Counted from the first letter of the stretch, positions 1-63,720 are shown. The stretch is DNA of 64,000 bases from a bacterium (GCA_030646995.1 JAUSKF010000005.1:75323-139322), one strand, 5' to 3'. The notes: generated by a model from the sequence alone, not told the origin. Program-made: numbers and translations.

Positions 1-1769
1 TGATTTTGTGGCTGGCTCTTGGGCAGACCACCGCCATCGGATTTTTGATTGGAGCGGTAGCTTCTTCGGTGGCCGGTTATATCGGTATGAATGTTTCGGT
101 GCGCTCTAATTCCAAAACAGCAGAGGCAGCTCACAAAGGCTTGGGAGCGGCTTTATCTTTGGCATTCAAAGCCGGTTCGGTAACCGGATATATGGTAGTC
201 GCTCTCGGTCTGCTTTCTGTAGCGGGATTTTATTTCCTGACCGGAGATCCGAAATCTTTGATTGGCTTGGGCTTCGGCGCTAGCTTGATCTCTATTTTCG
301 CCCGCTTGGGTGGTGGAATTTTTACTAAAGCCGCCGACGTTGGTACCGACTTGGTTGGTAAGGTAGAAGCAGGAATTCCCGAAGATGATCCTCGGAATCC
401 CGGAGTAATCGCTGATAACGTGGGCGACAATGTTGGTGACTGCGCCGGTATGGCCGCCGACCTTTTTGAAACCTATGCGGTCACTTTGACCGCCGCGATG
501 TTGATTGGGGCGCTTACTTTGTCCGGTGGCCAGCTGGCCTTCCCGTTGGTGCTGGGCGGATTAGCAATCGTTGCTTCAATTTTAGGCGGATTATTCGCAA
601 AACTCGGAAAGAGTAAATCCATAATGGGGGCTTTGTATAAATCTTTGATTTCCGCCTTAGTTATTTCCGCCGGTCTTTTCTATTGGGCCTCGAGTGTTTA
701 TTTTCCCGAAAACACTTTGAACATTTTCTTCGCGACCGTGGTTGGTTTGGTAGTTACGATTCTGATGGTGGTGGTTACTGATTATTACACCGCTAAGAAT
801 TATCGCCCCGTTAAATCTATCGCCGAAGCTTCCCGCTCCGGTCATGGCACGAATATTATTATGGGTCTTTCGGTCGGGATGGAGTCTACTGCCTTGCCGA
901 TTTTGATTATTGTTGGCGGAATTTTGGCGGCCTTCTCCTTGGCCGGACTTTACGGCATCGCTTTGGCGGCAACCGCCATGTTGTCGGTCGCCGGAATCGT
1001 AGTGGCGATTGATTCCTTTGGTCCGATTACTGATAACGCCGGTGGCATCGCCGAAATGTCTAAAGCTCCGCAGGAAGTTCGTGAAATTACCGATGCTTTG
1101 GACGCGGTGGGCAACACCACGAAAGCGGTGACTAAAGGCTATGCCATTGCTTCGGCCGGATTAGCCGCTTTGGTTTTGTTTGCTGGTTATGTGGAAGAGC
1201 TTTCAGCGGTAGCGAAAGATGTGGTTTTTGAATTGCAGGATCCATTTGTGGTGGTCGGCTTATTCTTGGGCGCCGCCATTCCTTTTTTGTTTGGTTCGAT
1301 TGCGATGCGCGCAGTTGGAGAGGCGGCAGGGGCAGTCGTTGAAGAAATCCGTCGTCAATTCCGGGAAATTCCGGGAATTATGGATGGAACCGGTAAGCCG
1401 GACTATGCCCGTGCCGTGGATATCGTTACAAAAGCTGCTCTTGGAAAAATGATTGTGCCGGCGATTTTGCCGATTGCCGCTGTCTTAATTGTCGGTTTCA
1501 CTTTGGGCCCCGCCGCTTTGGGTGGCCTGTTGATCGGAGCGATTGTATCCGGTTTGTTCGTGGCCTTATCAATGACTTCCGGAGGAGCCGCTTGGGATAA
1601 CGCGAAAAAGTATATTGAATCCGCAGGAGCTAAGGGTACTGAGTGGCACAAGGCCGCTGTTACCGGAGATACCGTGGGCGATCCGTATAAAGACACCGCC
1701 GGTCCGGCAATTAACCCGCTTATTAAAGTCATCAGCATCGTAGCGCTTTTGATTGTTCCGCTTCTTTAA
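1..1769 (+). CDS. hppA: H+/Na+-translocating membrane pyrophosphatase (5'-truncated by window start)
   Basis: Translation contains GDNVGDCAG and [10 protein letters not shown], the hallmark motifs of V-type membrane PPase. The protein is multi-TM. It is too short for a full-length protein (about 670-800 aa), so the N-terminus lies upstream of the window. Confidence 0.88.
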
Positions 1770-33170: not shown

Positions 33171-34685
33171 ATGCCGACACCAAAAGCAAAAACAGGAAAT
33201 GATCTGATGGATAAGCTTCTTAGCTTGTGCAAAAGGAGAGGTTTTATTTTTCCGGGCTCGGAAATTTACGGCGGCTTAGCTAACTCTTGGGACTACGGCC
33301 CGCTTGGCGCTGAATTAAAAAAGAATATTAAAGACGAATGGTGGAATCGCTTTGTCCGCCAGCGTACCGATGTAGTTGGAATTGATGCCGCTTTGATGAT
33401 GAACCCGAAGGTTTGGGAGGCGAGTGGCCACGTGGCCGGTTTTTCCGATCCGTTGGTGGAGTGCAAAAAATGCCATGAGCGTTTCCGCGCTGACGCTCTC
33501 GAAATTTCGAAATCCGATGTCAAAATGTCGAAATCTCCTGTCGAAATGTCGAAATCTGATGTCAAAATGTCGAAATCTCCTGTCGAAATCTCGAAATCTC
33601 GAAATGTCATTCCCTGCCCGTCTTGTGGTGGTGAGCTGATGGAGGCCAAGCAATTTAACCTTATGTTCAAAACGAACATCGGCCCGACCGAAGAAAAGGG
33701 AAGTGCGGTTTATCTCCGCCCGGAAACGGCGCAGGCGATGTTTGTGGATTTTAAAAATGTATTAGACACCACGCGTAAGCGTCTGCCGTTCGGTATCGCC
33801 CAGATGGGCAAGGCTTTCCGAAATGAAATTACTCCCGGCAATTTTATTTTTCGCACCCGTGAATTTGAGCAGATGGAAATTGAATATTTCGTAAAAGAAT
33901 CCGAATGGGAAAAGCATTTTGAGAATTGGTTAGGCGAAATGAAGGCCTGGCTGGAACACTTGGGAGTTTCCGAAAAAAATCTGCACTATGCCGAGATTCC
34001 CGACGGGGAGCGCGCTCATTATTCCAAGCGCACCGTGGATATTGAATATGAATATCCTTTTGGTCGCAAAGAGCTTTACGGTTTGGCTTACCGCGGGAAC
34101 TTTGATCTTACCCAGCATGAGAAATTCAGCGGACAGGATTTGCGCTACACCGACCCGAATCCGCCGGCTGGCGGACCGAAGGAGAAGTTCTTGCCGCACG
34201 TCATTGAGCCGACCTGGGGCGTGGATCGTTCGGTTTTGGTGGCGATGCTAGAGGCGTACCATGAAGAAAAAGTAGAAAGTTCCGCCAAAGGCGGATCCGC
34301 CTCCGGCGGAAAAAGTGAAAAGTTAAAAGTGAAAAGTGAGGGAGAGGAAGGGGAGGACATTCGGGTAGTGATGCGTTTTCCGAAGTGGCTGGCTCCGGTG
34401 AAAGTAGCGATTTTGCCGCTTTCCAAAAAAGAAGAATTGGCGAAAGTTGCCAAACCCCTCTATGAAGAATTAGCCAAAAAGTTTGTCTGCGAATACGACG
34501 AAACCCAGAGCATCGGCAAGCGTTATCGCCGCCAAGACGAGATCGGCACGCCTTATTGCGTGACGGTGGATTTTGATTCGCTCGAGGACAAAGCCGTTAC
34601 TGTCCGCGACCGCGACACGATGGAGCAGGACAGGATCAAAATTTCCGAGCTTGTGGATTACTTAGGAAAAAGTTTAGAGAAATAA
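33171..34685 (+). CDS. glyQS: glycyl-tRNA synthetase (dimeric, class II)
   Basis: RRGFIFPGSEIYGGLANSWDYGPLGAELKKNIKDEWW is the GlyRS N-terminal signature. Has class II motifs and a C-terminal anticodon-binding domain. Contains a 2x14-aa tandem repeat insertion. Confidence 0.88.
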   Translation: MPTPKAKTGNDLMDKLLSLCKRRGFIFPGSEIYGGLANSWDYGPLGAELKKNIKDEWWNRFVRQRTDVVGIDAALMMNPKVWEASGHVAGFSDPLVECKKCHERFRADALEISKSDVKMSKSPVEMSKSDVKMSKSPVEISKSRNVIPCPSCGGELMEAKQFNLMFKTNIGPTEEKGSAVYLRPETAQAMFVDFKNVLDTTRKRLPFGIAQMGKAFRNEITPGNFIFRTREFEQMEIEYFVKESEWEKHFENWLGEMKAWLEHLGVSEKNLHYAEIPDGERAHYSKRTVDIEYEYPFGRKELYGLAYRGNFDLTQHEKFSGQDLRYTDPNPPAGGPKEKFLPHVIEPTWGVDRSVLVAMLEAYHEEKVESSAKGGSASGGKSEKLKVKSEGEEGEDIRVVMRFPKWLAPVKVAILPLSKKEELAKVAKPLYEELAKKFVCEYDETQSIGKRYRRQDEIGTPYCVTVDFDSLEDKAVTVRDRDTMEQDRIKISELVDYLGKSLEK

Positions 34686-37717: not shown

Positions 37718-37721
37718 GCGA

Positions 37722-37811
37722 GTAGTCGCTAATAATGCGAATTTTGGCCAATAATGCTAATATTTATTCGCATTATTAATTCTTCCATTTGCATTATTCG
37801 CGATTACTTCA
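37722..37811. repeat. MITE-like AATAATGCGAAT element (copy 1)
   Basis: AGTAGTCGCTAATAATGCGAAT ... ATTCGCATTATT ... GCATTATTCGCGATTACT: terminal inverted repeats of the same family as 46839-46950 and 63668-63720. Confidence 0.55.
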
Positions 37812-39275
37812 ATGAATAAGTTTTACGTCACAACTTCCATACCCTATGTAAACGGCGCTCCCCACATCGGCAATGTGCTTGATTCGGTTTATGCCGATGT
37901 TTTGGCGCGCTATCATCGCCAACTCGGTGATGATGTCCGATTTTTGACCGGCACCGATGAGCATGGCTCTAAGATAGTGCGCAGCGCGAAGGCGGCCGGG
38001 TTAACTCCGCAGGAATTTGTGGACAAGAACTCTTTTCAGTTTAAAAAGTTGAAAGATGTTTTGAATCTTTCTTGGGATGATTTTATTCGAACCTCTGACC
38101 AGAGCCGTCATTGGTCCGGAGCGCAGAAATTATGGGGCAAGTTGGAAAAAGCGGGGGATCTCTACAAAAAAGCTTATAAAGGCCTTTATTGCATCGGCCA
38201 CGAGGCTTTTATTACCGACAAAGACTTGGTTAACGGTATTTGCCAAGACCATCAAAAGGCGCCGGAGGTGATTGAGGAAGAAAATTATTTTTTCAAACTT
38301 TCTAAATACACCAAAGAAATTGAAAAGCAAATAAATTTGGGAACGTTCAAGGTTGTCCCGGAATCGCGAAGGAATGAGATTTTGTCGTTGTTGTCTCAAG
38401 GTTTGGAGGATGTGAGCTTTTCTCGCCCTGCTAAGGATTTATCTTGGGGCGTGCCGGTTCCCGGAGATTCTACCCAAACTATGTACGTTTGGGCTGACGC
38501 TTTAGTGAATTACATTTCCGCTCTTGGATATGGGAGCTCCGACGAGAAAATCTTCGAGAAATATTGGCCGGCAGATGTGCAGGTCATCGGGAAGGACAAT
38601 CTTCGCTTTCACGCCGCTATCTGGCCGGGAATGTTGCTTTCCGCGGGCTTGCCTCTGCCACAAACAATTTTTGTGCATGGATTTTTGAATGTAAACGGAC
38701 AAAAAATTTCTAAGACCGTGGGCAATGTAATTGATCCGGCGGAGTTGGTGGCGAAATATGGCACTGATCCTGTGCGTTTCTATCTTTTGCGGGAAGTCGC
38801 TCCATTTGATGATGGAGATTTTAGCTATGAAAAATTTGAAGAAGTTTATAACGCCAACTTAGCCAACGGATTGGGTAATTTTTCCGCCCGGGTACTGGCT
38901 CTTGGAGAAAAAGCGGGTGAGTTGGCTGGGGACGTGAATGATCCGAAAGTTAAAGAGATATTAGCGAAATCTGCAGAAGTGCGCGCGGCTGTAGCCGGGA
39001 AAGTTTCGGATTTTAAGTTTCACGAAGCGTTGGCGGCGATCTGGGGGTTTATCAGTTACGGCGATGTTTATGTAAACAATGAAAAGCCCTGGGAGGCCGG
39101 AAAAGAAAAAGTAATCACTCACGCCCTACTTATATTGGAGCAGGTCGCTGATCTTTTGAAACCATTTCTTCCGGAGACCGCTAAAAAAATATTGGATTGC
39201 ATAGAGGTTACCGGTATCGGCACCCTTAAAGCCAAAAAGTGTCCGCCCCTGTTCCCACGAATTGAGCATGCCTAA
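37812..39275 (+). CDS. metG: methionyl-tRNA synthetase (short form)
   Basis: PYVNGAPHIGN (HIGH), KISKT (KMSKS) and an anticodon-binding domain. Confidence 0.92.
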   Translation: MNKFYVTTSIPYVNGAPHIGNVLDSVYADVLARYHRQLGDDVRFLTGTDEHGSKIVRSAKAAGLTPQEFVDKNSFQFKKLKDVLNLSWDDFIRTSDQSRHWSGAQKLWGKLEKAGDLYKKAYKGLYCIGHEAFITDKDLVNGICQDHQKAPEVIEEENYFFKLSKYTKEIEKQINLGTFKVVPESRRNEILSLLSQGLEDVSFSRPAKDLSWGVPVPGDSTQTMYVWADALVNYISALGYGSSDEKIFEKYWPADVQVIGKDNLRFHAAIWPGMLLSAGLPLPQTIFVHGFLNVNGQKISKTVGNVIDPAELVAKYGTDPVRFYLLREVAPFDDGDFSYEKFEEVYNANLANGLGNFSARVLALGEKAGELAGDVNDPKVKEILAKSAEVRAAVAGKVSDFKFHEALAAIWGFISYGDVYVNNEKPWEAGKEKVITHALLILEQVADLLKPFLPETAKKILDCIEVTGIGTLKAKKCPPLFPRIEHA

Positions 39276-46838: not shown

Positions 46839-46950
46839 TCGCGAATAATGCCAATTTTAAACTTTAATATTGCGAATAAAAACGTGGAGCAGATGTAGGC
46901 GGACAAATTTGCATTATTTGCCAAAATTCGTATTATTAGCGAACACTTTA
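46839..46950. repeat. MITE-like AATAATGCGAAT element (copy 2)
   Basis: Begins AGTAATCGCGAATAATGCCAATTTT. Ends AATTCGTATTATTAGCGAAC, an inverted copy of the first terminus. Confidence 0.55.
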
Positions 46951-47097: not shown

Positions 47098-48138
47098 TTA
47101 TTTTCTCTCGGTAAGCTTCACCGCTACAGCAAAGGATTTTTTGCCCCGTAACACTTTTAGATTCATCACTCCGCCCACCTCCTTCTCTTCGAGGATGTCT
47201 TGAATGGTGCGGTCTGTAGTAATTTTTATTCCGTCGCATTCGAGTACGATATCTTTTTCTTTCAAGCCAGCCTTGTGAGCTGGGCTACCCGGTATAATCG
47301 CTTGTGTGTGTGGCTCTTGGCCAACTACCATTGCTCCGTAGTCAACGGCCAACTTCATTCGGGATTTCATATTTTCGTCTACGTTTATATAACGTAAACC
47401 AAGCAGCGGGCGCTTGATGTGGCCGAATTTTTTCAAATCAGCCAAATCCCGCTCCGCGTATTTTATCGGTATGGCGAAGCCGAGGCTTTGGGCTCCAAAC
47501 ACAATCGCGGAATTGATGCCGATAGCTTCTCCGCTCATATTCACCAGCGGCCCGCCGGAATTGCCTGGATTGATGGCGGCATCGGTTTGGATAAGTCCTC
47601 GAAGCTCTTGTGGGGCGACCATGGGGGCGGTGGCGGCGCGAATCGAGCGAGCAAGGCCGGAAATAATCCCGCTAGAGACTGTATTTTTAAACATTCCCAA
47701 AGCGTTGCCGATAGCGAGTACGCTTTCACCCAAGTCCAAATTTGAAGAATTGCCGAGTTTTACTATTGGTAAGTTTTTGGCACTGATTTTCAGAATTGCT
47801 ATATCATCCACCGGATCGCGGGAGAGTACCTCGGCCTTATATTTTTTGTTATCGTCGGCGATTATTGTGTATTCCGCCTTCGGGTCAGCTACCACGTGTT
47901 TATTGGTTAGGATTATTCCTTCCGGGCTGACAATAAAACCGGATCCACCACCTATTTTCACCATTCCACGGGAATCTATCTCTTCAGGCGGAATGTTTAA
48001 GTGAGGATGACCATACGGCATAAACGGAAGTACTTCCGGAGGAATTTCTTTCTCCAAATCCTCCAAACTTTTGGAAATTACAATTGATACGACCGCGGGC
48101 ATTACTTTTTTAATCGTTTCTACAATTTGAGATTTCAT
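47098..48138 (-). CDS. htrA: HtrA/DegP-family serine protease with PDZ domain
   Basis: Trypsin-like catalytic domain (GNSGGPL) and a C-terminal PDZ domain. Confidence 0.9.
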   Translation of the reverse strand: MKSQIVETIKKVMPAVVSIVISKSLEDLEKEIPPEVLPFMPYGHPHLNIPPEEIDSRGMVKIGGGSGFIVSPEGIILTNKHVVADPKAEYTIIADDNKKYKAEVLSRDPVDDIAILKISAKNLPIVKLGNSSNLDLGESVLAIGNALGMFKNTVSSGIISGLARSIRAATAPMVAPQELRGLIQTDAAINPGNSGGPLVNMSGEAIGINSAIVFGAQSLGFAIPIKYAERDLADLKKFGHIKRPLLGLRYINVDENMKSRMKLAVDYGAMVVGQEPHTQAIIPGSPAHKAGLKEKDIVLECDGIKITTDRTIQDILEEKEVGGVMNLKVLRGKKSFAVAVKLTERK

Positions 48139-48148
48139 TGGTTAATTA

Positions 48149-48222
48149 TACCATTCCATTTAATTTCTATAAGTCTGGTACGTGTACCATTCTATTTTAT
48201 TTATATAAGTCTGGTACTCGTA
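48149..48222. promoter_or_regulatory. tandem 36-bp repeat in htrA upstream region
   Basis: Two copies of TACCATTC(C/T)ATTT..ATTT(C/A)TATAAGTCTGGTAC. Each has GTACCA...TGGTAC inverted ends. Confidence 0.5.
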
Positions 48223-48229
48223 ACAAAAA

Positions 48230-48901
48230 TTACGGAATAATGGTTGGCTTGCGTCGGTGCTTAATAAATTCAAGCACAGTCGGCACTAATGACACTATGA
48301 TTATCCCTATGATTACTAGGCCGAAATTTTCTTTAATAATCGGAATGTTTCCGAAGAAGTAGCCGGCGAGCGAAAAAGCCATGACCCATAAAATTCCTCC
48401 GGCCACATTGTAGGCAAGAAATTTCAGATAATTCATATGACCGATTCCGGCCACAAAAGGAGCAAAGGTGCGGATAATCGGGATAAAGCGGGCAATGACG
48501 ATGGTCTTTGCCCCATGAATTTCATAGAAATCATAGGCGCGGCGCAAATAATCTTTATTAAAAAATAAACTTTTTTCTTTAGAGAAAACCAGTGGCCCCG
48601 CTTTCCGGCCAATCCAATAATTTACGGTGTCGCCCAAAATAGCGGCGGTAGCAAGGAGGAGGATTAGGAGGCCGATATCAATACTTCCCAGCGCGGCAAT
48701 CGCTCCGGCAGCGAAAAGCAGAGAGTCTCCGGGCAGAAAAGGGGTGGCGACTATACCGGTTTCGAGAAAGATCACCAAGGTTAAGATACCGTAAGTCCAA
48801 ATACCGTAATTTTGGACGACGGTATTTAGATGCTCGTCGAGGTTCAAGAATAAATCGATTAATTGGCTTAGGATATCCATTGAGGGAATTTTAACATGCA
48901 T
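48230..48901 (-). CDS. DedA family membrane protein
   Basis: DedA/VTT-domain signature LETGIVATPFLPGDSLLFAAG in a multi-TM protein. Confidence 0.8.
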   Translation of the reverse strand: MHVKIPSMDILSQLIDLFLNLDEHLNTVVQNYGIWTYGILTLVIFLETGIVATPFLPGDSLLFAAGAIAALGSIDIGLLILLLATAAILGDTVNYWIGRKAGPLVFSKEKSLFFNKDYLRRAYDFYEIHGAKTIVIARFIPIIRTFAPFVAGIGHMNYLKFLAYNVAGGILWVMAFSLAGYFFGNIPIIKENFGLVIIGIIIVSLVPTVLEFIKHRRKPTIIP

Positions 48902-48940
48902 ACCAGACTTTATATAATGTAATAGAATGGTACAAATGAT
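48901..48940. promoter_or_regulatory. third (inverted) copy of the 36-bp repeat, in the dedA upstream region
   Basis: ATACCAGACTTTATATAATGTAATAGAATGGTAC is the reverse complement of the htrA-upstream unit. Overlaps a TATATA -10-like box. Confidence 0.5.
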
Positions 48941-48951
48941 AAACTTATTTT

Positions 48952-49773
48952 ATGTTTGGGTTTTGGAAAAAATCAGCAATTGTGGCAGCGGCCCTGGCTT
49001 TGGTTCCGTTGGCGGCCAATGCGGCGATTTTACGTAATTTGAAGCAGGGCGATCGGGGAGAAGACGTGCGGGAATTGCAGACAATTTTGAACAAGAGCCC
49101 CGACACTCGGGTCGCCTTGATTGGCCCCGGTTCCTCCGGAAACGAAACCGCCTATTTTGGCATCCTGACAAAAGTAGCAGTGATCAAATTCCAGGAAAAG
49201 TATGCCGCTGATATTTTGACTCCGGTGGGATTGAAGAGCGGCACCGGGTTTGTTGGCGGGCAGACGAGGATTCTTTTGCTACAACTGGCGGCTGGAAAGA
49301 CGGCTCCACTGGCGTCTCCTTCGACGAGCCCAGGGCAAGCGACACCCCAGGCCGTAAAGACCCCGCCACCGAAAATTGTTTCTATTTCCCCCGGCGTCGT
49401 GACCGCCAGCACCCGCGAGCTTACGATAACTGGCGAAAATTTTACGCCGACCGGTAACGCCGTAGTTGTTTCGAGCGAGCTGCCCGGCGCGTTCATTGAT
49501 CTTCCGTCCGCTGACGGCAAGGTAATAAAATTTAATTTTCACTTCGCGGCGGCCGATGCTTTGAAAAAGCAATTAGCCCCGATGATCGCTTCCGGTAGAT
49601 ACGCGGCCATTTCGGCATCCTTTACTAAAAATATCCAGGATCGGACCAGCCAGACCGGCAACGCCCAGATACCGGTTCAAGTTGAAGTCCGAAACTCCAA
49701 CGGGGCGAGCGCGCAATTTCAGATATTAGTTGATCTCACCGAGATTCTTAAAGAAATCGGCCCGCAATATTGA
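48952..49773 (+). CDS. hypothetical secreted protein (PG-binding-like plus Ig/IPT-like)
   Basis: Signal peptide, a peptidoglycan-binding-like block (DVRELQTILNKSPD...FGILTKVAVIKFQ) and an IPT-like segment (PKIVSISPGVV...ITGENF). Confidence 0.5.
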   Translation: MFGFWKKSAIVAAALALVPLAANAAILRNLKQGDRGEDVRELQTILNKSPDTRVALIGPGSSGNETAYFGILTKVAVIKFQEKYAADILTPVGLKSGTGFVGGQTRILLLQLAAGKTAPLASPSTSPGQATPQAVKTPPPKIVSISPGVVTASTRELTITGENFTPTGNAVVVSSELPGAFIDLPSADGKVIKFNFHFAAADALKKQLAPMIASGRYAAISASFTKNIQDRTSQTGNAQIPVQVEVRNSNGASAQFQILVDLTEILKEIGPQY

Positions 49774-50193: not shown

Positions 50194-50276
50194 TGCTCGG
50201 GACAGGAGTTGAACCTGCACGCCCTTGCGGGCACAAGCACCTCAAGCTTGCGTGTCTGCCGTTTCACCACCCGAGC
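50194..50276 (-). tRNA. tRNA-Leu (anticodon GAG)
   Basis: Type II tRNA: acceptor GCTCGGG/CCCGAGC, anticodon loop TTGAGGT, long variable arm (TGCCCGCAAGGGCG), T-loop TTCAACT. Confidence 0.85.
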
Positions 50277-50280
50277 TTAT

Positions 50281-50943
50281 TTAAATGATATTCTTCTTGC
50301 CTATTATAGCGAGTACGGCCCTAATTTTCAAATATTTTCTTCTAAGACTCGTGGCGTGGTTTTTATAATATATCTTTGGCAACAATTTTAAAGATTCCGC
50401 TTTCGCATATTTTAGCTGATAGCACACACCCTTTTGGCCACGTCCGGTTACGTGGCCTTTGATATTCAATAATTCGTAAATTCGCTCACGCAGCCAGTTA
50501 ATGTGTTTTTTGCTTGCCGATACAAACTCGGTATAAAACATAAAACTGGACCTCCATCGGGGATCCCAGTAGGAATAGAATGTTCCGTCGCCATCAAAAT
50601 GTCCGCGTAAAAAATCAAAAAAGTATTGATTTGGTATTTCTAATGCGCTCATTACCTTCGACTTGTTCGCCATTAGTCCAATTTTTAATAAAAATCTATA
50701 GAAATTCACGTCACCAAACTGGATACGAAATGCCTTTTTACCAGTTTGCCCGGACGTTTTTTGTCCGATTTTATTTTTAATTCCTAGGCACCCCTTAAAA
50801 TTCTCTAGTTGTTCCTTGTCCTTGGAAGTTAGATCAAAGTGCCGGCTATCGGATGATAAATTGCCATCGGTGGTTAAAAGCCCGATTGCGTAGGCAAAGT
50901 TGGGCGACCATTCAAGTTTTATTTTGTTTTTCGGTAAGGCCAT
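50281..50943 (-). CDS. LAGLIDADG-family homing endonuclease (double-motif)
   Basis: Two LAGLIDADG blocks, AYAIGLLTTDGNLS and FLRGHFDGDGTF, at the typical spacing. Free-standing, with its stop 4 nt from tRNA-Leu(GAG). Confidence 0.82.
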   Translation of the reverse strand: MALPKNKIKLEWSPNFAYAIGLLTTDGNLSSDSRHFDLTSKDKEQLENFKGCLGIKNKIGQKTSGQTGKKAFRIQFGDVNFYRFLLKIGLMANKSKVMSALEIPNQYFFDFLRGHFDGDGTFYSYWDPRWRSSFMFYTEFVSASKKHINWLRERIYELLNIKGHVTGRGQKGVCYQLKYAKAESLKLLPKIYYKNHATSLRRKYLKIRAVLAIIGKKNII

Positions 50944-55530: not shown

Positions 55531-55773
55531 TTATTGGGCCTTTTGGATTTTCTGGAATCCCTCCAAGTCGAAGGTGGCAATCTCGGGAGTCTTGCGAATG
55601 TCGGCTCCGGAAATGGCTGAGAGATTTTGCAACAGGAAGTTCAGGAGATAAATCACATAAATCATCAGCGCCAAAGCGATTGTGATACCCGCAACATATA
55701 ATATAGCCGCGTTCTTTTTCATTTTATTGGAAAAATACCTGACCTTCGGCAATAATGTTGAAATTATCGCCAC
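55531..55773 (-). CDS. small membrane protein, hypothetical
   Basis: 80-aa ORF with one TM helix. Confidence 0.3.
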   Translation of the reverse strand: MAIISTLLPKVRYFSNKMKKNAAILYVAGITIALALMIYVIYLLNFLLQNLSAISGADIRKTPEIATFDLEGFQKIQKAQ

Positions 55774-56266
55774 CCGACTGGCGAGTCATATCAACGGAAT
55801 TAAATTTAATGTATAACTGGCCTTTTTCTACATCCTTGAGGAATTTGGACCAATTTGCGTAAGTGGCGAGTCCCGTCAGAGAGAATTTAATAAATCCGGG
55901 AGTGTCGGCGGTGCTGGAAGTTTCGCCTCCGAAATCAAAACTTAATTCGGCGCCATTTTTTTGGGCCAAGTCGGTCATTTCCCGGCCGAAGTTGATTAGC
56001 TTGTCCTTGGAGGGGAGGACGACGTCCAGTTTTTTGGTGAGTGGGGCGGCCTTATCGGCGTCGTTTTTCAAGGTTGCCAGCGATTCGGTGGCTCGAGTAC
56101 GCAGCGCCAGTTCATTGCGTAATTCAGTGATATTGGTTGAATTTTTTCCCACATGCCAGGCTAAAAATTGCACCACTCCCACCGCGAGAATTGTTAATCC
56201 CAAGCTTATGCCCAGTTGAATCCAGAGTTGCTTTTTAAAAAGGTCCATACAATAGTAGTATAACAC
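55724..56266 (-). CDS. hypothetical membrane-anchored protein (PilO/PilN-like topology)
   Basis: N-terminal TM segment followed by a coiled-coil and an alpha/beta periplasmic domain. Family assignment is weak. Confidence 0.35.
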   Translation of the reverse strand: MLYYYCMDLFKKQLWIQLGISLGLTILAVGVVQFLAWHVGKNSTNITELRNELALRTRATESLATLKNDADKAAPLTKKLDVVLPSKDKLINFGREMTDLAQKNGAELSFDFGGETSSTADTPGFIKFSLTGLATYANWSKFLKDVEKGQLYIKFNSVDMTRQSGGDNFNIIAEGQVFFQ

Positions 56267-56269
56267 TCT

Positions 56270-57322
56270 ATGGATTCAGCCGATTTGTTATCCGAAAAGA
56301 AGTTTTATAACGCGCTTTGTGTCGCCAATCACGGAGACATTTTTGATATGAAAAAAATCCGAACCGCCTTTTCTTCTTGGGCCGAGGCCTGGGCTAAAGG
56401 AGGGAGCGGGCGGAATATTGATCCGGAAGCCGAATGGGAAAAACTTTCAGAACTGGGTATCAGTCTGTCTCTTCGCGGCGATAAGGATTTTCCGGTTCTT
56501 TTGAGTGAGGCAACTGACGCCCCATTCGCCATTTATTATAAAGGCATTATTCCGAAGGACGGGCGAAGCGTTTCAATCGTCGGCACTCGCAGGGCAACTA
56601 TGATCGCCAAAAGCGCCGCTAAAGACTTTGCGAGCCAGCTGGTCAAATCCGGCGTGGCAGTGATTAGCGGTTTAGCGATGGGCATTGATACTGCCGCTCA
56701 CGAAGGGGCGCTCGCCGCAGGTGGGAAAGCAATTGCTGTCTTGGCCAATTCTTTGGACTCGGTATATCCACGGCAGAATGAAAACTTAGCAAGACGAATT
56801 TTAGAAACCGGAGGCGCGCTGATTAGTGAGTATCCTTTAGGATCGGAAACTTTTCCGGTTAGATTTTTAGAGCGTAATCGGATTGTCAGTGGATTGTCTC
56901 CGGCGACTCTTGTGATTGAGGCTCCGGAAGATTCCGGTTCTCTGGTGACGGCGAATTTAGCCTTAGAGCAGAACCGGGAAGTTTTTGTGGTGCCGGGGCC
57001 GGTGAGCCATGAAAATTATCAAGGCTCGCATAAGTTAATTCGCGCGGGAGCGCGATTGGTAACCTCGGCTGCCGAGATTTTGGAGGATTTAGGTTGGCAG
57101 GATGAGGCGTCTCAAACCGCTTCGCTCTTGGAGCTTCCCATAGCTAAATTGGCTGCCGGGGAGAAAGTAGTCTTTAACGCCCTACGGAGCGCCGGCGAGG
57201 CTCTTCAAGTTGACAGAATACAAGAAATAACCAGAATGAGTGTTCTGGAAGTCAGCCGTAATCTGACTTTTTTGCAGATAAAAGGTTTAATTAAAGAAGA
57301 TGCTGGGCGTTACACAGTTTAA
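56270..57322 (+). CDS. dprA: DNA processing protein DprA/Smf
   Basis: Rossmann-like DprA core (VSIVGTRRAT...VISGLAMGIDTAAHEGAL). Confidence 0.9.
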   Translation: MDSADLLSEKKFYNALCVANHGDIFDMKKIRTAFSSWAEAWAKGGSGRNIDPEAEWEKLSELGISLSLRGDKDFPVLLSEATDAPFAIYYKGIIPKDGRSVSIVGTRRATMIAKSAAKDFASQLVKSGVAVISGLAMGIDTAAHEGALAAGGKAIAVLANSLDSVYPRQNENLARRILETGGALISEYPLGSETFPVRFLERNRIVSGLSPATLVIEAPEDSGSLVTANLALEQNREVFVVPGPVSHENYQGSHKLIRAGARLVTSAAEILEDLGWQDEASQTASLLELPIAKLAAGEKVVFNALRSAGEALQVDRIQEITRMSVLEVSRNLTFLQIKGLIKEDAGRYTV

Positions 57323-63667: not shown

Positions 63668-63720
63668 GGAGTAATCGCTAATATACGAATTTAAAATTAA
63701 ATAATGCGAATGTTCGACAA
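63668..63720. repeat. MITE-like AATAATGCGAAT element (copy 3, partial)
   Basis: AGTAATCGCTAATATACGAATTT...AAATAATGCGAATG immediately upstream of parB. Confidence 0.45.

Follow-up and report, generated by a model that had tools for sequence, protein, structure and literature searches.

To our knowledge, almost nothing is known of transcriptional control in CPR bacteria, because their members have not been cultivated and very few regulators can be recognised in them. A 64-kb stretch of CPR DNA (hereafter the window) carries a short repeat with inverted ends beside the genes htrA and dedA, and the question raised by this locus is what the repeat does there. A first-pass annotation took it to be a shared operator for an envelope-stress regulator, of the two-component or ECF-sigma type. 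The repeat is real and beyond chance. The envelope-stress operator model for htrA and dedA is only partly supported, owing to the target of one of the copies, the non-conservation of the repeat in sister species and the type of regulator proposed. As sister species have the repeat at other cell-surface genes, it is probably a swappable regulatory module and not a conserved htrA/dedA stress operator. The features on which this reading rests are listed in Table 1.

Table 1. Repeat copies, promoter elements and genes of the window, and locations of related copies in other genomes.
Feature	Location	Strand	Description
Repeat copy 1 (htrA-proximal)	48148-48181	-	GTACCAGACTTATAGAAATTAAATGGAATGGTAT; PWM score 49.3
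Repeat copy 2 (distal)	48184-48217	-	GTACCAGACTTATATAAATAAAATAGAATGGTAC
Repeat copy 3	48900-48933	+	ATACCAGACTTTATATAATGTAATAGAATGGTAC; PWM score 35.0; points to PG-binding gene
Junction palindrome TGGTAC-NN-GTACCA	48176-48189		formed where copies 2 and 1 meet
Degenerate palindrome, distal array boundary	48212-48225		TGGTACTCGTAACA on + strand
htrA extended -10, TGgTATAAT	48145-48152 (TATAAT 48145-48150)	-	6 nt before ATG 48138
Best sigma-70-like promoter, PG-binding gene	48891-48918	+	TTAACA-16-TATAAT, 11/12 matches
dedA extended -10, TGtTAAAAT	48888-48896	-	7 nt before ATG 48880 (M8 of long ORF)
htrA-like serine protease	47098-48138	-	Trypsin_2 and PDZ (Pfam)
dedA	48230-48901	-	VTT domain (Pfam); longest ORF
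PG-binding gene, secreted protein	48952-49773	+	weak PG_binding_1 match, just below Pfam cut-off
L114 (JBBTRE01, H41-bin011_1)	dedA-htrA spacer, orthologous site		two tandem copies
L112 (JBBTRE01)	between map and 150-aa membrane protein gene		partial copy and two copies
L102 (CAZJFE01)	before pilC and pilin genes		one copy
L094 (CAZJFE01)	166 nt before murB		one copy
L116 (CAZJFE01)	before small GTG-initiated ORF		partial copy and one copy
L122 (same run as L085, SRR13727527)	before pilC		one copy: GTACCAGACTTATAGAAATTAAGTGGAATGGTATAAT-taaagg-ATG

HtrA homologues that are 65-87% identical to the window protein are named Candidatus Harrisonbacteria or Parcubacteria; judged by these names, the source of the window is a Harrisonbacteria-like CPR bacterium. 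The calls of htrA and dedA made in the first pass were confirmed by Pfam. HtrA had been described as a periplasmic protease, a term that is not apt because the protein starts straight at its protease domain (MKSQIVETIKKVMPAVVSIV) and has neither signal peptide nor membrane anchor. The HtrA proteins of close relatives are, like that of the window, 345-349 aa in length. Gene callers often place the htrA start 12 codons downstream, which gives 334 aa; an exact look-up of the window HtrA returned no match, and a 100% match (P0001) is stored with the shorter start. With HtrA as the query, one metagenome scan yielded distant relatives only (≤58% identity), in other contexts and with no motif. The protein encoded at 48952-49773 has an N-terminus that resembles a signal peptide by eye. 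Among the neighbouring genes that were checked, no gene for a regulator or DNA-binding protein was found.

Elsewhere in the window, an ORF with a LAGLIDADG_3-like domain (50281-50943, - strand), possibly homing-endonuclease-like, adjoins a tRNA (50194-50276, - strand) and has the promoter TATAAT-N8-ATG. A weak, sub-threshold PilO-like ORF (- strand) is divergent from dprA (+ strand) at 55724-57322, beside topA, and these pilus/competence genes are without the repeat. The window also holds a 21-nt tandem repeat of about five ATGTCGAAATGTCGAAATCTC-like copies (33496-33608) within ORF 33171-34685, and a second intergenic repeat family (37721-37761 / 46907-46947 and 37766-37794 / 63683-63711). This family includes a 41-nt inverted pair that is 88% complementary (AGTAGTCGCTAATAATGCGAATTTTGGCCAATAATGCTAAT), and its ATTCGCATTATTA pieces are found upstream of the ORFs starting at 37812 (+) and 63667 (-) as well as between glmS and the 3' end of htrA.

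There are three units of the repeat in the window, each of 34 bp and of the form rTACCAGACTT-N14-GAATGGTAy, with a core that consists of TACCAGACTT, an AT-rich stretch of 14-15 bp and then GAATGGTA. The inverted ends reported earlier, (G)TACCA...TGGTA(C), are genuine, as are the two tandem copies upstream of htrA, which span 48148-48217 between dedA and htrA; Tandem Repeats Finder gives 48149-48217 with a period of 36, 1.9 copies and 90% matches. Copy 3 lies in the divergent spacer of dedA and the PG-binding gene. The pattern TACCA-N18-28-TGGTA occurs three times in the 64-kb window, every time at one of these units (0.15 expected), and none of 100 shuffles contained three. Likewise, TACCAGACTT occurs exactly three times in the window, always within a repeat unit. 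A PWM built from the family copies detected no further or weaker copy in the 64-kb window, and a PWM scan of 807 kb, comprising the window and the loci then collected, detected no weaker copies. In the three window copies, which were unselected by any search, 18 arm positions are identical, and the 14-nt centre of copy 3 differs from those of copies 1 and 2 at many positions; invariant arms around a drifted centre point to a sequence-specific constraint on the arms.

The palindrome TGGTAC-NN-GTACCA that arises at the junction of the tandem copies is also found in L112, L114 and L116. Its degenerate version at the distal boundary of the window array looks like the vestige of one more copy; a degenerate version bounds the upstream end of most family elements, and the flank TTTGTTACGn on this side of copy 2 also precedes the pilC copy in L122. 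As a free-standing operator the palindrome was rejected, for in 188 kb of clade DNA it was found only within elements and never alone. Folding of the individual units gave hairpins of -0.4 to -2.4 kcal/mol, within the shuffle range, and thus no stable single-unit hairpin. As RNA, the entire 94-nt spacer folds somewhat better than shuffles (z -2.7, 4/200 as good). Rfam returned no family at the window locus, nor downstream of the L116 and L094 copies, and the reading as an RNA element was dropped for this reason. By eye, the L094 copy is followed by a possible terminator-like hairpin. L116 has long-range complementarity (CCCGCCTTAG...CTTAGGCGGG) with no Rfam match, and at its 1-144 (- strand) TATAGT-N5-GTG opens a 42-codon ORF, VEPALDSELVDSRVRQIASYLGSLAELTHLILFGVQLRRDFL, where the contig ends.

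The unit is directional. Copies 1 and 2 read toward htrA, and copy 3 reads toward the PG-binding gene and away from dedA. Copy 1 overlaps the htrA -10 box, its final 3 nt also being the first 3 of the box, and the copy continues into TGgTATAAT-taacca-ATG of htrA, an arrangement of the sigma-70 extended -10 leaderless type (TGnTATAAT about 6-8 nt before the start codon). With the extended -10 only 6 nt from the ATG, a leaderless htrA mRNA is predicted. For the PG-binding gene, the -10 of the best promoter (TATAAT) falls within copy 3, and an alternative -10, TAGAAT, is located at 48923-48928. The dedA gene has an extended -10 of its own, TGtTAAAAT, which is kept in all relatives, with or without the repeat. 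Because the relatives start there and TGtTAAAAT-N7-ATG is conserved, the true dedA start is probably 48880 and its mRNA probably leaderless. The first-pass annotation had also placed a third copy near the dedA start; this copy is present, although it is oriented to the PG-binding gene and not to dedA, and dedA has its own -10 in relatives that lack the repeat. For copy 3, a role at the divergent PG-binding gene is therefore no less plausible than one at dedA.

The arrangement at htrA has counterparts across the window. TATAAT-N5-9-ATG is common at operon-first genes (ORF starts 21840 (-), 31428, 35018, 50943 (-) and 51412 (-)), and the ORF start at 56270 is also listed among the TATAAT-like leaderless-type starts. 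In many first genes a TATAAT-like box precedes the start by 5-9 nt and there is no Shine-Dalgarno sequence, so that leaderless initiation seems to be common in this CPR genome; the internal genes 9778, 27635 and 40151 carry GGAGG. Ordinary -35 boxes (TTGnnn) are found at other promoters of the window. The idea that the repeat unit contains a canonical -35 was rejected, as only CTTATA is found at 17 nt upstream of the -10. The conserved block TACCAGACTT is positioned at about -42 to -33 and is not a canonical polymerase element; given a module with no canonical -35, the block is better explained as a factor site.

Comparison with relatives separates the repeat from the genes next to it. A contig from Logan run SRR13727527 (L085) is identical to the window over both spacers, and the htrA site is also filled in L114. 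The repeat is absent from both control regions in L081/L082, L086/L087, L088, L117, L118, L083 and L084, and hence does not appear to be a conserved htrA/dedA operator. In five of these lineages (L081/L082, L086/L087, L088, L117 and L118) the synteny PG-binding gene <- -> dedA -> htrA is kept. HtrA identity to the window in the repeat-less lineages is 79-87% (84-87% in these five, L083 81%, L084 79%). In the five empty lineages the distance from the dedA stop to the htrA ATG is 7-30 bp and the divergent spacer about 45-60 bp, and both the dedA -10 and the htrA -10 (TATAAT or TATACT, N6-7, ATG) are retained; L086 and L088, for example, keep TATAAT/TATACT-N6-ATG at htrA. Since a -10 is present at the empty sites (L086, L088, L118 and L120), the repeat is extra DNA set directly upstream of ancestral -10 boxes. 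In L083 (1-2159), a bAvd/23S_rRNA_IVP gene and an RVT_1 reverse transcriptase gene lie a few kb upstream of rplS-dedA-htrA, which we take to be a gene pair associated with diversity-generating retroelements.

The window and L114 have a common left junction, TAATTTTT(G)TTA(A/C)GA(A/G)|TACCAG, and in both the array is flanked by a duplication, now diverged, of ~18 bp from the 3' end of dedA. From these two features the htrA insertion looks like a single old event. HtrA of L114 and L081 is 93% identical, yet the L081 site is empty, and the HtrA and DedA identity matrices are incongruent (93%/82% for L114-L081, 83%/84% for window-L114), which suggests a recombination breakpoint near the dedA-htrA spacer. 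On this evidence, the repeat must have been lost through recombination between the flanking duplicates, or segments must have been exchanged among lineages. At htrA, at pilC and in the divergent spacer, sites are empty in very close relatives (85-94% protein identity), which indicates gain, loss and duplication of modules.

When 185,579 species genomes were scanned for TACCAGACTT-N13-15-GAATGGTA, 28 loci were obtained, most of which were single matches in unrelated phyla with GC-containing centres, about the number estimated from chance. Two Patescibacteria MAGs (JBBTRE01 and CAZJFE01) had several matches with AT-rich centres, the exact-arm search pattern biasing the apparent conservation of the arms in these other genomes. 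CAZJFE01 is the same genome as L082, in which the htrA site is empty. A match in Staskawiczbacteria (L115) may be a more distant family member. A scan of viral contigs gave one match, inside a coding region, which was judged to be chance, and a search of the literature on CPR promoter motifs found nothing specific. The L122 pilC copy, which is 36/37 identical to window copy 1, comes from the sequencing run that also yielded the window-identical L085, and L122 and the window may for this reason be from one genome.

All family copies (six loci in at least three genomes) are intergenic, promoter-proximal and co-oriented with the downstream gene, so that the scattered or intragenic copies expected of a simple repeat were not seen. 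The genes downstream in relatives include cell-surface genes too, namely the pilC-pilin operon, murB and a small membrane protein gene. The motif occurs at a fixed position and orientation in several promoters, and most copies abut a -10: the promoter-proximal copy ends GAATGG and is followed by TATAAT (TATAGT in L116), 5-28 nt before the start codon, and this GAATGG|TATAAT register is found at six sites (window htrA, L114, L122, L102, L112 and L116). Copies with TATAAT after them mostly carry TGGAAT and those without it carry TAGAAT, so that every copy keeps a -10-like box. Copies in one array are more alike than orthologous copies, and two family copies have a 15-nt centre. The pilC site is filled in L102 and L122 and empty in L120/L121, whose PilC is 94% identical to that of CAZJFE01 and whose site reads ...aaaTGtTATAAT-tgaattaatcagat-ATG. 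L120/L121 and L102 are homologous from TATAAT on and differ over the ~65 nt upstream, which indicates that this DNA was replaced and not merely interrupted.

Taken literally, the earlier model of one envelope-stress regulator (two-component or ECF sigma) that co-controls htrA and dedA is improbable. Copies are present in both control regions, htrA is stress-regulated in many bacteria, and the other targets in relatives are envelope genes. Against the model, copy 3 is directed at the PG-binding gene, relatives conserve the dedA promoter regardless of the repeat, and most close relatives have no repeat at htrA and dedA. No match to the sigmaE/ECF (GGAACTT-N16-TCAAA), CpxR (GTAAA-N5-GTAAA) or CiaR (TTTAAG-N5-TTTAAG) consensus was found in 47900-49100. 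Moreover, the module abuts a TATAAT of the sigma-A type and not an ECF -10, and HtrA is without a signal peptide. As to other stress operators, CIRCE/HrcA, HAIR/HspR and CtsR operators had zero matches in the window with mismatches allowed.

Read as a promoter of the sigmaH/ComX type, for an alternative sigma factor, the unit would have ACCAGACTT as its -35-like element and RnnGAAT as its -10-like element, 11 nt apart, and would drive pilus/competence-type and surface genes. The B. subtilis sigmaH consensus is RnAGGAwWW-N11-12-RnnGAATww, which ACCAGACTT-N11-AtaGAAT resembles, and in two species a pilC-pilin operon is among the targets. Agreement at the -35 is weak, however (CAGA against AGGA), the genome portion examined has no such sigma gene, and the unit is joined in a fixed way to a sigma-A TATAAT already found at empty sites, which speaks for dependence on sigma-A. 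We regard this reading as quite improbable.

In a rough order of the rivals, a 'mobile promoter' or selfish mini-repeat is the serious one, the sigmaH/ComX-like promoter is weaker, and MITE, REP and TIGR elements fail their defining tests. As a mobile promoter, the repeat would be a self-contained, compact AT-rich cassette with no dedicated regulator. Illegitimate recombination or gene conversion would carry copies of it from one intergenic region to another, where tandem amplification could follow, and it would provide constitutive strength or have no effect. The unit contains several -10-like hexamers (TATAAA, TAGAAT and TATAAT), presence and absence alternate in close pairs (L114 and L081 at htrA, L102 and L120 at pilC), the upstream pilC DNA was replaced, the pilC copy and htrA copy 1 are nearly identical with a common left flank, and within-array copies resemble each other most. 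Promoter reuse and putative mobile promoters have also been published (PMC3575422). What speaks against a cassette of this kind is that the arms have stayed invariant around a drifting centre, and this even in copy 3, which is old and diverged; such arms point to sequence-specific recognition of TACCAGACTT and GAATGG, neither of which is an RNA polymerase consensus. Its copy number per genome is also apparently low, with no more copies in 64 kb and three exact matches in one MAG. All in all, we consider it unlikely, albeit the strongest of the alternatives.

The best fit to the fixed sigma-A -10 register, the orientation, the invariant arms and the spread over several genes would be a clade-specific, directional operator or activator module upstream of promoters, which serves a putative factor and is spread by promoter-region exchange. 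We tentatively assign this reading a probability of roughly 0.45. The downstream end of the module would be fused in fixed register to a sigma-A extended -10 (TGgTATAAT), which would fire a leaderless or short-leader mRNA, and the conserved arms would most likely be contacted by a putative DNA-binding regulator, either an activator at about -42 to -33 (or -44.5) or a repressor over -43 to -12. A small, species-variable set of mostly cell-surface genes may thereby come under one input: htrA, the PG-binding gene (perhaps with its divergent partner dedA), pilC-pilins, murB and small membrane proteins. Tandem copies would provide extra sites. Modules would pass from one promoter to another when the DNA upstream of an existing -10 is recombined or replaced, and could also be duplicated or lost, so that regulon membership would differ between sister species. 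Beyond the observed anatomy, orientation and -10 register of the units, their distribution over loci and genomes and their presence/absence polymorphism, we infer protein binding, the sign of regulation and the transcription start sites. The claim of a shared cis-regulatory site thus stands in so far as the repeat is not random, lies at promoters and could plausibly be bound by a protein, and is not supported as regards a conserved htrA/dedA operator. Several points count against the operator module: none of the neighbouring genes checked encodes a DNA-binding protein, a simple dimer would not usually have arms spaced by 22 bp, two copies have the longer 15-nt centre, the L094 copy is distant from murB and has the possible terminator-like hairpin behind it, the arm conservation in other genomes is subject to the search bias, the targets are few, with 'cell surface' being a loose category in a small genome, and, given the patchy distribution and the L122 copy, recent promoter copying fits as well as selection for a regulon.

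A bolder and doubtful version is that copying places a cassette of 34-36 bp exactly at the upstream border of existing -10 boxes, as a 'plug-in' operator that rewires surface genes. If so, protease, pilus and wall-enzyme genes would be rewired to answer one regulator, with a turnover fast enough to differ between species at 93-94% protein identity, and regulons in reduced CPR genomes would evolve by cassette exchange and not by point mutation. In kind, the repeat is unsurprising, since lineage-specific promoter or operator motifs and reused promoters are well known. It is mainly of interest because ways into transcriptional control and the turnover of regulons are rare for CPR bacteria. It is a concrete, testable cis-element with defined arms, a -10 register and targets that include a type IV pilus operon and the HtrA protease; the sister genomes supply natural filled and empty alleles for comparison, and the repeat illustrates promoter-module exchange as a route of regulon turnover.

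Among known systems, the idea that the repeat is a MITE-, REP- or Correia-like miniature transposable element, or else a short guide array of the TIGR type, is very improbable, notwithstanding the inverted ends, the TA at both boundaries, the tandem copies and the patchy occurrence. TIGR arrays have two alternating 8-12-nt repeats and two 9-nt variable spacers in 5-15 units with a period of 36 nt, lie adjacent to a Nop-domain Tas gene, and are found in CPR bacteria (PMC12045711). The tandem period and the CPR host are the likenesses. Unlike such arrays, the window has 2 units only, with one conserved block and a semi-conserved AT-rich centre in place of dual repeats and two hypervariable 9-nt spacers, and its neighbours are htrA, dedA and the PG-binding gene, with no Nop-domain gene nearby. 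REP, BIME and REPIN elements likewise have intergenic units of ~35 bp with inverted ends that are sometimes in tandem. However, REPs form stable imperfect-palindrome hairpins, occur mostly at gene 3' ends in both orientations, and are associated with RAYT transposases, whereas the hairpin of the present unit is unstable and its position and orientation are promoter-specific.

The Correia elements of Neisseria (NEMIS) are also short repeats with inverted ends and TA boundaries that precede genes and contribute promoter elements. They are about 100-155 bp long with ~26-bp inverted repeats, and occur in hundreds of copies, in either orientation, with a clean TA duplication. None of this applies to the repeat described here: 34 bp is far under MITE size, orientation is strictly toward genes, and there is no clean insertion with target-site duplication, as flanks are replaced and not split, the irregular dedA 3'-end duplication flanks the htrA array, and no duplication is uniform over sites. 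With the htrA stress operators, the repeat has in common a conserved motif at -45 to -10 of the htrA promoter that is common to envelope genes; unlike them, it lacks their consensus sequences and is not conserved at htrA in close relatives.

The putative mobile promoters described in a study of promoter reuse in prokaryotes (Matus-Garcia, Nijveen and van Passel; PMC3575422) are a class whose description the repeat fits, given the near-identity of the htrA and pilC copies and the empty orthologous sites. As in that class, near-identical promoter-region sequence is found before non-homologous genes, within and across related genomes, and its presence varies between relatives. It differs in that the module is only ~34-50 bp long, ends exactly at the -10, is often in tandem, and has two invariant arms that are not RNA polymerase elements.
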